The position numbers were made by a program, and so were the translations under genes. Below are positions 28,956-52,165 of a DNA stretch of 64,000 nucleotides, piece after piece. Position 1 is the stretch's first letter. Each line of letters opens with the position of its first letter. Origin of the DNA: a bacterium (lineage in GTDB: Bacteria > UBA8248); NCBI GenBank assembly GCA_965225985.1, contig OZ245330.1, positions 971,509 through 1,035,508 of the forward strand. Reading direction: 5' to 3'. The notes under the pieces were generated by a model. The model ran no database searches and was not told the origin of the DNA. It saw nothing but the letters and a program-made list of their open reading frames with translations.

Positions 28956-29516
28956 CTACATGGGGAACCATCCGAATCCCTTATAATGTCCGCGCAGGTA
29001 GCAGATCTGCCCACTGTGCTGGGAGTTGTCCATTGTGAGCCCAGCGAGAAAATCCCCGACCTTTATGGTTCCGCCGGCGAAGAAGGGCACCTCGCGTTCG
29101 AGGTCGGCCGGGGAGAGCTTTTCCAGGCAGGCCGAGGTCTTCTTCCGCACCGCGGCGGAATAATCCAGAAGATCCTTCTTGGCCGCCTTGAAGTTCCCCG
29201 TCTGATCGGGGGTTTGCCCGGTTCCCGTGTTTTTGAGATCGGAATCCGTTCCGAACTTCTTGGCCAATTGGCCGTCGGACCACACCTGCTCCTCTCCCGT
29301 GACGGAGGAGAGCACCATGTCTTCCCCACGCGACTGGTGCCAGACGAGCCAGCCGATGGGGTTCGAATGGTCGCTGGGCCGCTTCATGAGGTCAGCCTCC
29401 GAGAGGCCGTCCAGTGCCTTTTGTACGAAATCCGCGTTGTATTCGAGTGTCTTGCCGATGACCGCCGTTGCGTCCATGCCGCTCTCCTTTCTGTGAGAAT
29501 GGGGCCAAGAAACCAC
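28956..29516 (-). CDS. DinB/YfiT-family (DinB_2) metal-dependent hydrolase-like protein
   Basis: 186-aa ORF; DinB_2 helices with conserved His positions (IGWLVWHQSRGED...; NSQHSGQICYLRG). Start may be the internal ATG at ~29477. Confidence 0.75.
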   Translation of the reverse strand: MVSWPHSHRKESGMDATAVIGKTLEYNADFVQKALDGLSEADLMKRPSDHSNPIGWLVWHQSRGEDMVLSSVTGEEQVWSDGQLAKKFGTDSDLKNTGTGQTPDQTGNFKAAKKDLLDYSAAVRKKTSACLEKLSPADLEREVPFFAGGTIKVGDFLAGLTMDNSQHSGQICYLRGHYKGFGWFPM

Positions 29517-33637: not shown

Positions 33638-35881
33638 ATGGCGCGAATGAAATACGTCGGCATGTCACCGACGAAAGAAGACGCCCTCGCAAAGGCTGTG
33701 GGGGACACGGTTTTCGGCGACGATTTTCATTTGCCGAATGAGATCTATGGAGCGGTGATACGGACGGAAATGGCTCCCGCCCGAATCAAGAAGATAGACG
33801 GGCGCCGGGCGCTCGCCCTTCCCGGGGTGCACTGCGTCCTCACATCGGATGACATTCCCGGGGCCAACGCGGGGCGGTATCCCTACTATCCCGTCTTGGT
33901 CGAGGGCGTGGTCCGGGGCATCGGGGACGCGATTGCCCTCGTCGCCGCGGAAACACATGACCTTGCCCGGGAGGCGGCCCGGCGCGTTCAGGTGACCTAC
34001 GAGCCCCTCCCGGGAGATTACGACTTCACCCATCCGGCGGGGGAGGTTCTCTGCGACTGGCAGACCGAGAAGGGGGATGTCGAGGCCGGCTTCCGCGAGG
34101 CGGATGTCGTCGTCGAGAATGTCTTCTATTCGGCCTGTCTCGACCACGGCTTCATCGAGCCCGAAGGCGGAGTCGCCTGGGTGGACGAGCGCGGGGTGGT
34201 GAACGTGCGCGTTCCGACCCAGGACATCGAAAATTATCAAAACGTGGCCGCCACCCTCGGTCTGCCCGCCAGCCGGGTCCGGTACCACAGCCCCATGGTG
34301 GGGGGTGCCTTCGGGGGAAAGGAACATCCCCTCCTCGGCGCCTTCCTGGCGCTTCTCGCCACCCGGACGGGGCGTCCCGTGCGGATGGCCTACACCCGCG
34401 AGGAAACCATCAATTCGGGAAGCAAGCGCCACCCCTTCCTCATGAAATACAAAACCGGCGCCACGCGCGAGGGAAAACTTACCGCCGTCGAAGTGGACAT
34501 CCTCGCGGATTCGGGCGCCTACCCCACGATGAGCAGTAACCTTGTCATGAGTGCCCTTTGCATCAGCGGGGGTCCCTACAAGATTCCGAACGCGAGGGGG
34601 CGCGCCCGGGCCATTGCGACGAACAACCCCTTCACCGAGGCGATGCGCGGGGTCGGGGCGAATCAGGTTTGTTTCGCTTATGAGTGCCAGATGGACGAGG
34701 TGGCGCGCCGGATCGGGATGGACCCGCTCGAATTCCGGCGGCGCAATTTCATCAAAAAGGGCGAGACCCTGATGCAAAAGCAGCCCGTTCCGACGACGGT
34801 GCTCCTGCCCGAGTTGTTGGCGAAGGTGCGCGCTTCCGCCGGCCGGGGCGCGGGGCCCGTTTCGGAGGCGGGAAACGGGGCTTGGCGGCGGGGGGTGGGC
34901 TATGCGGCGAATATCGCCGGCTACACCCGGCCCGACACCAAAGGCGAAGGCTACCTTTCCCTCGAAGATGACGGGAGCGTGCAGGTGCGCGCCGGCGTCA
35001 CCGATGTGGGCGCGGGCCAGGCCCAAACCTGCCGGCAGATCGCGGCGGAGGTTTTGGGAATTCCCATCGAAAAAATCACGGTGGTCGTATCGGACTCCGC
35101 CGTCACCCCCCTCGCCGGCATCACGGCGGGCAGCCGCCAGACCCTCGTCTCGGGCGGCGCCATCTACCATGCCGGGCGCGAGGTACGCGACAACCTCCTG
35201 ATCGGTGCGGCGGAGCTGCTCGAGGCGGCCCCGGAGGACCTGGAGGTCGGAGAGGGAAAAATATTCGTGCGCGGCGCCGAGGACCGCTCGGTCGGGATCA
35301 CGGCGGCCATCGGCAAGTGCAAGGAGTTGAACCTTTTGCTCCACGCGACCGGCCAGGTGAAGCTCGGCGGATTCGATTATGAAGGAAACGAGAAGTACGG
35401 AAAGGGAGGCGGCTGGATGGATTACGTTTTCGGGATCCACACCGCCGAGGTGGAGGTGAACGTCGAGACGGGCGAGATCCGGATGATCAATTTCTGGTCC
35501 TCCCACGACGTGGGCCAGGCCGTCAACGTCCAGCACGTCGAAGGGCAGTTCGAAGGGGGTGCCATGATGGGGGTGGGCCACGCCCTCACCGAGGAGGTCA
35601 TCTCCGAAAAGGGCGTGCCCCTCACCAACCACCTGGAGAGCTATCTCATCCCGACCGCGATGGAAACCCCCGAGTGGGAATCCATCATCCTCGAGTCGGG
35701 CGAAGGCCTCGGCCCCTACGGGGCGAAGGGGATCGGCGAGCCCCCCTGCACGGCCGCCGCCGCCGCCGTCGCCAGCGCCGTGGGCCAGGCGATCGGGGCC
35801 TGCATCACCCGGATTCCGATCACCCCGGACCACGTCCTCGAGGTCCTAGGTAAGCTCAAGGGCAAAGGGAATCGCCGCTGA
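33638..35881 (+). CDS. xanthine dehydrogenase/aldehyde oxidase-family molybdopterin-binding subunit (no adjacent FAD or [2Fe-2S] subunit genes)
   Basis: 747-aa ORF with Ald_Xan_dh_C and C2 domain signatures (GGAFGGKE, ...GVGANQV..., GEPP near C-terminus). Confidence 0.85.
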   Translation: MARMKYVGMSPTKEDALAKAVGDTVFGDDFHLPNEIYGAVIRTEMAPARIKKIDGRRALALPGVHCVLTSDDIPGANAGRYPYYPVLVEGVVRGIGDAIALVAAETHDLAREAARRVQVTYEPLPGDYDFTHPAGEVLCDWQTEKGDVEAGFREADVVVENVFYSACLDHGFIEPEGGVAWVDERGVVNVRVPTQDIENYQNVAATLGLPASRVRYHSPMVGGAFGGKEHPLLGAFLALLATRTGRPVRMAYTREETINSGSKRHPFLMKYKTGATREGKLTAVEVDILADSGAYPTMSSNLVMSALCISGGPYKIPNARGRARAIATNNPFTEAMRGVGANQVCFAYECQMDEVARRIGMDPLEFRRRNFIKKGETLMQKQPVPTTVLLPELLAKVRASAGRGAGPVSEAGNGAWRRGVGYAANIAGYTRPDTKGEGYLSLEDDGSVQVRAGVTDVGAGQAQTCRQIAAEVLGIPIEKITVVVSDSAVTPLAGITAGSRQTLVSGGAIYHAGREVRDNLLIGAAELLEAAPEDLEVGEGKIFVRGAEDRSVGITAAIGKCKELNLLLHATGQVKLGGFDYEGNEKYGKGGGWMDYVFGIHTAEVEVNVETGEIRMINFWSSHDVGQAVNVQHVEGQFEGGAMMGVGHALTEEVISEKGVPLTNHLESYLIPTAMETPEWESIILESGEGLGPYGAKGIGEPPCTAAAAAVASAVGQAIGACITRIPITPDHVLEVLGKLKGKGNRR

Positions 35882-36036
35882 TTCAAATCGAGGGCAAGAA
35901 AACCGCGCCCCGCCGTGATGGCGGGGCGTTTTTGGGGCGTCATCCCTCGGGTGTGTGAGGGACCGCCCGGGCGGTTTTTTCGCCGGGTCCGCGAAACGGC
36001 TTCGGCCTGGCTCTCTTCCCCTTGCGGTCCCGCCGC

Positions 36037-36507
36037 CTAGACCTCTTCGAAGTCGGCGGAATACTCGATCTGGATCCCGCGCTGAACGCTCTGGCTGGCG
36101 GGGCAGCCCTTATCGTGGACGCCCAGGGCGCGCTCGGCCTCGGGGCGCTTCCCCTTGGGGATTTTGGCCTTGTAGTGGACGCAGATTTTGGTGACGAGGG
36201 CCGTGCCGTCCACGTTCTCGATGAATCCTTCGACCTCGGCTTCGAGGAGGTCGGGTGCGCTCGGAATTTGACGCGCCTCCAGCGCGCCTCCCATGTTTCC
36301 AGTCATTCACCCGGCCACGGCGGCCACGAGATGATCCAGCGTGGCGGGCCGTTCCACCTCGGGGTTCGCCTTGTAGAATTCCTTGATCCCTCCGTGGATG
36401 CCGTAGAGGACGGGCTCGTCCGGGAAGGCCTCCAGGACGGCCCGCTTCATCCCCCTTCCCGGCTCGTTGATGATGCGCAGCTTGCTGACGTGGATTACCT
36501 CTCCCAT
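36037..36507 (-). CDS. OsmC/Ohr-family peroxiredoxin-like protein with in-frame TGA (36307..36309) at the peroxidatic cysteine position; candidate selenoprotein
   Basis: ATG 36507 (AGGAGG 7 nt upstream) then MGEVIHVSKL...NPEVERPATLDHLVAAVAG-TGA-MTGNMGG...HDKGCPASQSVQRGIQIEYSADFEEV. The two ORF-track ORFs (36307..37029 tail and 36037..36306) are in the same frame and directly abut across the TGA; the second conserved Cys (GCPAS) is present; a hairpin GGCGCGC-UGGAG-GCGCGUC starts 19 nt after UGA. Confidence 0.55.
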
Positions 36508-36614
36508 ACGGATTCCTCCTTGATGTGGGTGAGAACGGCGATTGAGAGTGCACCCCGAGACTATCACCCGCGCCGGGGCCGGCAAAAGGGAGAAAGCGAT
36601 ATCGGGCGCGCCGG

Positions 36615-48778: not shown

Positions 48779-49957
<1,179 letters not shown>

Positions 49958-49992
49958 CCGGGGGAGGTCGCCAGGGGGGAGGTGCCCCTTGA

Positions 49993-50068
49993 AGGCCAGT
50001 GGCTCAATTGGTAGAGCACCGGACTCCAAATCCGGCGGTTGGGGGTTCGAGTCCCTCCTGGCCTGCCA
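49993..50068 (+). tRNA. tRNA-Trp (anticodon CCA)
   Basis: Acceptor AGGCCAG/CUGGCCU, anticodon loop CUCCAAA, T loop UUCGAGU, CCA encoded. Confidence 0.85.
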
Positions 50069-51388: not shown

Positions 51389-51460
51389 CGAAACGGTGTG
51401 GGAGGCGTCCTCGCGGTTTGTGCGTGGGGCGCCGCCGGAACCACGAAGGAGGGGAGAAGA

Positions 51461-52165
51461 GTGCCCAGGCACGGAAAAAATTACCGAAACGCTCGAGAGA
51501 AGATCGACAGTTCCCGGCTTTATCCCCTGGAGGAGGCCGTCACCCTCGTCAAGGAATTCGCCTCGGGCAAATTCGACGAGACGTTGGAAGTGGCCGCCAA
51601 TCTGGGGGTGGATCCAAGGCACGCCGACCAGATGGTCCGGGGCAGCGTCGTGCTTCCCAACGGGATAGGGAAATCGCAAGTCGTCGTCGCCCTCGCCAAG
51701 GGCGACAAGGCGGCCGAGGCCAAAGAGGCCGGGGCCGATTTCGTGGGCGCGGAGGATTTGGCGGAGAAGATCCAGGGGGGCTGGCTTGAGTTCGACCGGG
51801 TGGTCGCCACCCCGGACGTTATGAGCGTGGCGGGCCGCCTGGGAAAGATCCTGGGGCCGCGCGGCATGATGCCCAATCCCAAGTCGGGCTCGGTTTCGTT
51901 CGATATGGCCCGGATGGTCAAGGAGATCAAGGCGGGAAAAGTGGAATACCGCGTCGAGAAGGCGGGCATCGTCCATGCCCCGGTGGGAAAAGCCAGTTTC
52001 GAGGTGATGGCCCTGGCGGAAAACATCCTGGCCATTGTGGAATCTCTCCTTCGGGCCAAGCCCGCTTCCAGCAAGGGGGTGTATTTCCGCGGCATGAGCA
52101 TTTCCAGCACGATGGGCCCCGGGGTCAAGCTGGATCACCAAAGCCTGGTCAGTGCTCTCAAGTGA
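51461..52165 (+). CDS. rplA: 50S ribosomal protein L1
   Basis: GTG start with AAGGAGGGG RBS; (V)[15 protein letters not shown]...[16 protein letters not shown]... Confidence 0.9.

Follow-up and report, generated by a model that had tools for sequence, protein, structure and literature searches.

Does the TGA that interrupts a minus-strand reading frame in this DNA end a gene, or does it encode selenocysteine (Sec) in the middle of one? The original prediction, made from the sequence of the 64-kb window (by which we mean the whole stretch of DNA analyzed), was that an OsmC/Ohr-like peroxiredoxin gene carries an in-frame UGA at its first catalytic cysteine, and that this UGA is decoded as Sec with the help of a downstream hairpin. 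The comparison of the locus with its relatives makes it very probable that 36507..36037 of the minus strand is one intact gene of OsmC-like type, with Sec decoded at the UGA in 36309..36307.

Organization of the locus

The coordinates and translations that had been given for the gene proved exact when verified from the sequence (Table 1). A minus-strand ATG with an AGGAGG ribosome-binding site opens a frame of 66 sense codons, which reaches the TGA and continues for 89 codons without a frameshift, and the second conserved Cys, expected in a GCPxS context, is found in GCPAS. Translation through the TGA yields a conceptual product of 156 residues including U67, whose junction peptide reads ...VAAVAGU MTGNMGGALEAR. 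The 89-aa piece (36037..36306) is the only part of this product that appears as an ORF of its own in a mechanical ORF listing.

Table 1. Features of the OsmC-like locus (window coordinates)
Feature	Position	Strand	Basis and remarks
Shine-Dalgarno AGGAGG	36515..36520	-	Direct sequence reading; 7 nt 5' of the start codon
Complete CDS, predicted OsmC-like selenoprotein	36037..36507	-	ATG 36507..36505 to TAG 36039..36037; translation, Pfam, predicted fold, dN/dS
N-terminal 66 codons	36310..36507	-	Separate 66-aa "gene" without domain in the gene calls of public assemblies
In-frame TGA, predicted Sec codon (U67), first catalytic Cys column	36307..36309	-	Orthologue counts, Cys homologues, alignment to 1UKK
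SECIS-like upper stem-loop, 8 bp (two G.U), GGA loop	36270..36288	-	bSECIS constraints, covariation, codon bias
TGC for Cys135 (GCPAS), second, resolving-type Cys	36103..36105	-	Invariant in orthologues; aligns with OsmC GCPVS
Terminator-like hairpin, 9 G-C pairs then CGGTTTTCTT	35906..35928	-	Consensus scan; 109 nt past the OsmC-like stop codon

The terminator-like hairpin stands between the OsmC-like gene and a convergent gene for a 747-aa molybdopterin enzyme (33638..35881 of the plus strand, with a TGA stop). It is strong and resembles a shared, possibly bidirectional terminator. The consensus scan is weak evidence for a terminator, since it found one site where 0.9 are expected by chance.

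Membership of the OsmC superfamily

With the TGA read as Cys, the product matches the Pfam OsmC profile (PF02566) at 40.2 bits, for a cutoff of 27.5, over residues 55-149; its N-terminal 54 residues lie outside the match. The AlphaFold model has a pLDDT of 76.7 and a pTM of 0.74, with low confidence at residues 39-53. Among the top 50 Foldseek matches of this model in the PDB, almost all are annotated as OsmC, Ohr, or OsmC-like, the E. coli and Thermus thermophilus OsmC proteins coming first (probability 0.99-1.00; TM-scores of 0.41-0.56 when normalized by the query and up to 0.61 when normalized by the target). Judging from the Pfam score and the predicted fold, the product is a protein of the OsmC superfamily. 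At that level the "OsmC/Ohr-like" label of the original prediction stands; it does not carry over to the curated families, as the models for OsmC and for OsmC-type selenoproteins both failed (see below).

A sequence search of the PDB aligns the product with the OsmC proteins of T. thermophilus (1UKK) and E. coli (1QWI, 1NYE). In these alignments the TGA column coincides with the first catalytic Cys in all three structures (AAHAGCFS in 1UKK), and C135 falls on the second Cys of the solved OsmC structures, with GCPAS placed on GCPVS. Other residues conserved in the family are R79, E93, E97, R126, and H131.

The state of the TGA column among relatives

The search of 5.8 billion proteins returned 259 matches. 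More than 100 of them are only 85-90 aa long and span just the part that follows the TGA, and a few full-length ones carry Cys in the TGA column (VAAVAGCMTGT). Scanning one genome per species and keeping the best 80 full-length matches gave metagenome-assembled genomes (MAGs) labelled as Nitrospinota/Nitrospinaceae or simply "bacterium," as Methylomirabilota/Rokubacteria/NC10, and as Acidobacteriota (Bryobacterales, Terriglobia, Blastocatellia). The in-register column is TGA in 75 of these 80 genomes and TGC in the remaining five, which are all Acidobacteriota; TAA and TAG are never found. Together with the window there are thus 76 Sec-type genes among 81 orthologues, all 76 with TGA, and in every one of them the codon for Cys135 (at +68) is invariant. 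Such uniformity of the TGA lies well outside chance.

A similar picture is given by an exhaustive library clustered at 50% identity, from which the best 149 cluster representatives were sorted by their state at the column. Cys is present in 66, within the motif G-C-[L/M]-T-G-T; 36 are fragments that begin past the column, 15 are fragments that end exactly at it, and two have Trp. That the TGA occupies exactly the first conserved Cys column, as had been proposed, is therefore confirmed in three ways: by the Cys of full-length homologues, by the TGC of the five genomes, and by the alignment with OsmC structures.

A hairpin downstream of the UGA

Bacterial SECIS elements (bSECIS) are described by an apical loop of 3-9 nt with G in the first two loop positions, a stem of 4-16 bp, a UGA-to-loop spacing of 16-37 nt, and a free energy of at most -7.5 kcal/mol. 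We used our own implementation of these constraints, as quoted in PMC13188914. The predicted hairpin, GGCGCGC-UGGAG-GCGCGUC, is present at 36288..36270, 19-37 nt past the UGA, and an additional U.G closing pair extends it to 8 bp. With a GGA loop, a spacing of 26 nt, and a free energy of -11.8 kcal/mol, it agrees with the published geometry in every respect. The lower stem that had been proposed to extend it must be abandoned: the minimum-energy fold pairs UGGAA with UUCCG instead, and the stem is not conserved in relatives.

A hairpin within the constraints is found in 76/76 Sec-type genes, with a median free energy of -10.4 kcal/mol. Three of the five Cys-type genes also pass, with weaker hairpins (about -8 kcal/mol) at other positions; the DNA that encodes the peptide G-A-L-E-A-R is partly self-complementary, which explains why some Cys-type genes form weak hairpins as well. 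Taken as a whole, the 73-nt stretch folds with an energy that is unremarkable for such a GC-rich sequence (z = -0.36 against dinucleotide shuffles) and hence uninformative, so a control by synonymous recoding was used in its place. Only 6.3% of the synonymous recodings of the window peptide produce any hairpin within the constraints, and 3.3% produce one as stable; across the peptides tested, 6-34% pass and 0.9-21% match the observed stability. The window hairpin is beyond chance once the protein sequence is fixed. A search of 36000-36560 with Rfam at a permissive threshold gave two chance-level matches only.

From one clade to the next the hairpin does not keep a homologous position, and three registers coexist within this one protein family. 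Counting the U of the UGA as 1, register H1 (stem 22-29/33-40, loop 30-32) is that of the window's clade and of many Acidobacteriota, H2 (stem 14-20/27-33, loop 21-26) that of Methylomirabilota, and H3 (stem 15-23/27-35, loop 24-26, GGC) that of a Bryobacterales group. Across 30 distinct sequences, pairing at the six core pairs of H1 is about 100%, and two of its pairs show compensatory changes: C-G to U-A at 26:36 in two sequences and G-C to A-U at 27:35 in six. Each compensation consists of an Ala-to-Val change in one codon and a synonymous change in the partner codon. The covariation score of H1 was reached by none of 500 shuffles, and slid registers collapse. H2 is 97% paired, with G.U wobble changes only and no double compensations. 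Codon usage agrees with a structural constraint on the stem: Ala is encoded by GCG in 60/74 genes at +8 and in 50/61 at +11, as compared with a preference for GCC elsewhere in the gene, and the Leu at +9 is encoded by CUG or CUA only.

The hairpin shares with the SECIS elements of the E. coli fdhF/fdnG type, and with the bSECISearch consensus, its place in the coding region directly past the UGA, a small apical loop that starts with GG, and a spacing within 16-37 nt. It differs in the three registers that the family uses according to clade, and a likeness in sequence is not expected.

Decoding of the UGA

TGA is the commonest ordinary stop codon of this organism, ending 15 of 31 called genes (TAG ends 10 and TAA six). 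On these counts UGA is not reassigned in its genetic code, and any decoding at this locus must be site-specific. Under the Sec interpretation, the hairpin at 36288..36270, with its apical loop GGA, would recruit SelB carrying Sec-tRNA(Sec) during translation, and the ribosome would insert Sec at the UGA rather than terminate. In the protein, U67 would reduce a hydroperoxide and be converted to a selenenic acid, which may condense with Cys135 into a selenenylsulfide; by analogy with OsmC and Ohr, the latter would be re-reduced by a thiol or lipoyl donor.

The genes for the Sec machinery were sought in the window and in the loci fetched from relatives. ARAGORN and Rfam found five ordinary tRNAs in the 64-kb window and no tRNA-Sec, the fetched loci likewise having none, and tblastn with the E. 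coli queries found no SelA, SelB, or SelD in the window or in the fetched loci. The matches left over from the latter search are one SelB-like match at 48821-50005 and short matches to GTPase domains. The SelB-like match sits in a tRNA/tuf cluster and is presumably EF-Tu. A GTPase that adjoins the OsmC gene in two of the fetched loci (L081 and L082) was considered as a possible SelB and turned out to be EF-G-like. The gene calls at approximately 1-20 kb and 26-46 kb of the window consist of housekeeping genes only. ARAGORN also reports an 84-nt "tRNA-Pro (tgg)" at 51829..51912 of the minus strand, with its anticodon at position 32; it has no Rfam tRNA match at the gathering threshold, is not a tRNA-Sec, and is probably a false positive inside an opposite-strand ORF region of high GC3 (51398..52165, plus strand).

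A scan based on the gene map found no second selenoprotein gene in the 64-kb window. The raw list of in-frame TGA codons, with 252 candidates, is useless at 62% GC. The gene-map scan itself retained two candidates. One has no hairpin, and the other proved to be the regular TGA stop of the gene for the 747-aa molybdopterin enzyme, with the terminator hairpin behind it. That the hairpin at 35906..35928 passes a naive SECIS test after this stop codon shows how easily such scans yield false positives. The scan is crude in any case, as it wrongly placed the OsmC locus in a shadow ORF.

Some genomes of these lineages are reported as rich in selenoproteins. In BSepDB, 48-54 selenoprotein genes are recorded for MAGs under the name "uncultured Nitrospinota/Nitrospinaceae bacterium" (GTDB UBA8248; PMC13326102), and for one Methylomirabilota MAG a number of 63 is quoted in a recent review (PMC13188914). 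Judging by the labels of its nearest relatives, the window may belong to a selenoprotein-rich lineage of this kind.

The alternative that survives best is that the UGA is read through without Sec, whether by a near-cognate tRNA that brings in Trp or Cys or by Cys carried on tRNA(Sec). Sec-decoding systems can insert Cys under selenium scarcity, and the failure to find the Sec machinery in the window or in the fetched loci is compatible with this alternative. We nevertheless consider it quite improbable. With UGA as the commonest normal stop, the decoding has to be specific for this site, and a hairpin that fits the SECIS of the SelB type lies at the right distance in all 76 genes and shows covariation. 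Moreover, Cys (TGC) is the sole sense alternative at the column among the best 80 genomes, which is the classic Cys/Sec pairing, and the lineages concerned are those reported as rich in selenoproteins. The interpretation of the UGA as a Sec codon is thus supported by the column that it occupies, its conservation, the selection acting on the gene (see below), the hairpin, and its covariation.

One chain or two

As had been anticipated, the gene is annotated as two fragments: every public call that we have seen consists of a 66-aa protein without domain and an 85-90-aa "OsmC family protein." Such calls would be correct if the UGA ended a chain of 66 residues and translation restarted at the adjacent AUG, the two chains then assembling an OsmC-like fold that lacks the first catalytic residue. 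In the window an ATG does follow the TGA directly. Among the 72 orthologues in which this codon was counted, however, it is ATG in 35, CTG in 34, CTA in two, and CTC in one, and in the orthologues without ATG a canonical start is not reached until 5 to 66 codons downstream. Only about one gene in two has ATG there, and hence no restart codon is conserved. In all 76 species the two parts share one frame and adjoin without spacing, and relatives with two genuinely separate genes were not seen among the orthologues. Furthermore, the junction coincides exactly with the column of the catalytic Cys, and the Cys-type homologues are single chains. A plain terminator would also permit TAA and TAG, and these are never found at the junction. 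Two separate chains are therefore very improbable, more so than read-through without Sec, and we retain a single chain with Sec at position 67.

A single chain makes a further expectation, namely that the protein sequence be maintained beyond the TGA. We compared dN/dS in the last 40 codons before the TGA and in the 84 codons after it. The values are, respectively, 0.088 and 0.140 in the window's clade, 0.097 and 0.102 in Methylomirabilota, and 0.163 and 0.156 in Acidobacteriota, which indicates that purifying selection is equally strong on both sides. No other in-frame stops were found in the orthologues. Independent assemblies of the same organism show the identical split into 66 aa and 89 aa (nine contigs indexed, four places shown), and a sister species shows the same split in the same methyltransferase-EamA-OsmC neighborhood. 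Hence, that a TGC or TGT codon, one base away from TGA, has undergone nonsense mutation or been miscalled is effectively refuted by the agreement of the assemblies, by the TGA at the same place in 75 other species, by selection after the TGA as strong as before it, and by the lack of other stops, even if GGA stands at the column in one short contig of a relative and one related protein looks frameshifted.

Relation to known OsmC-like selenoproteins

The curated model for Sec-containing members of the superfamily is NCBIfam NF041052, "OsmC-related (seleno)protein," which we take to be the same family as the OsmC-like selenoproteins of the Sargasso Sea and GOS surveys. With this model the window protein reaches 12.7 bits (E = 0.089), against a cutoff of 95 bits, and with the model of OsmC proper (TIGR03562) it reaches 22.4 bits, against a cutoff of 85.8.

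The survey family was predicted from the Sargasso Sea data on the basis of three sequences, assigned to COG1765, with the motif UxxT (PMC1088965). The GOS survey counted five Sec forms and 161 Cys forms (PMC2398784), and later reviews carry the family as COG1765/YhfA type, UxxT (PMC9312934, PMC13188914). The window protein resembles its members in belonging to the PF02566 superfamily, in the predicted Sec at the place of the first catalytic Cys, in a SECIS-type hairpin just past the UGA, and in the existence of Cys homologues; both are known from sequence alone. The differences are threefold. Where the survey family has UxxT, the window protein has U-M-T-G-N, and the consensus of its subfamily is G-U-[M/L]-T-G-[T/N]. 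Its best neighbors in both structure and sequence are OsmC proper (1QWI, 1UKK), YhfA (1ML8) ranking only 15th. Finally, Sec forms are rare in the published surveys, whereas in the subfamily of the window Sec is predicted in 75/80 best genome matches. With OsmC proper and Ohr the window protein has in common the predicted fold and two redox residues at equivalent positions, approximately 68 residues apart, in A-G-C and G-C-P-x-S contexts. Unlike in OsmC proper, with which identity is just 16-20%, the first of these residues is predicted to be Sec.

No concept is changed by this gene, as Sec in the place of the catalytic Cys has been predicted in thiol peroxidases, including OsmC-like ones, since 2005. 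What is new, as far as the sequences tell, is an OsmC-like Sec branch that NF041052 does not cover. Given its different motif, its failure with this model, and its mostly Sec state, the subfamily extends a known principle in a way that is useful for annotation and conceptually unsurprising. We would go further only tentatively, and with slightly less than even confidence, in proposing that these proteins form a distinct OsmC clade (G-U/C-[M/L]-T-G-T, with an atypical N-terminal third) outside the curated selenoprotein models, in which Sec prevails over at least three phylum-level groups and the SECIS has been rebuilt in three registers within one and the same peptide, itself conserved. On that reading, public entries of 66 aa or of 85-90 aa, hundreds in number, would be halves of one selenoprotein, and the clade would offer a natural case study of a coding-region SECIS that moves while the protein stays fixed. 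A profile for the subfamily would mend these entries and raise by one the number of selenoproteins counted in Nitrospinota-labelled, Methylomirabilota, and Acidobacteriota genomes, that is, a predicted Sec-dependent peroxidase of OsmC type in lineages already reported as selenium-rich. The 76 natural variants of a putative coding-region SECIS, in three structural registers, should also be useful for studies of recognition by SelB.

Errors and variants in public data

Splitting is not the only way in which these genes are mis-annotated. One of the two entries with Trp at the column (P0133, encoded at 211..669 of L092) has an in-frame TGA in its DNA, the source pipeline having used a code in which UGA is Trp. 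This entry illustrates a second route of mis-annotation and marks a more divergent branch that carries Sec.

Two further cases show that errors or variants of the OsmC-like gene do occur in public data. In L091, a short Methylomirabilota-like contig, codon 795..797 (protein P0002) is GGA for Gly where relatives have TGA or TGC, within the run GCGGGGGGAATG. An artefact of genetic code 25 is ruled out, the DNA being truly GGA; the codon may reflect a genuine inactivating change, or else a base-call error in the G run. The second case is P0001, a protein of 159 aa on a 16.9-kb contig that is 60% identical over its full length and has a frameshifted stretch (…ARHAGSPGRRRRRLTDGQYGRRAGC…) at the TGA site, probably an artefact due to an indel in the assembly.

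The surroundings of the gene vary in two respects. One sister-species strain carries an IS110-family transposase gene (DEDD_Tnp_IS110/Transposase_20; L003, 3555..4580) directly downstream of the OsmC-like gene, an insertion that is absent from the otherwise syntenic L004-L007. Elsewhere in the window, a gene of the DinB_2/MST family (approximately 28956..29516, minus strand; 16831..17352 in L001) has a single call of 173 aa in two assemblies. Two others, from this organism or one very close to it, give a protein of 70-72 aa instead, with a 64-aa piece following it in one case, and these split calls could be due to a frameshift, to strain variation, or to another recoding site.
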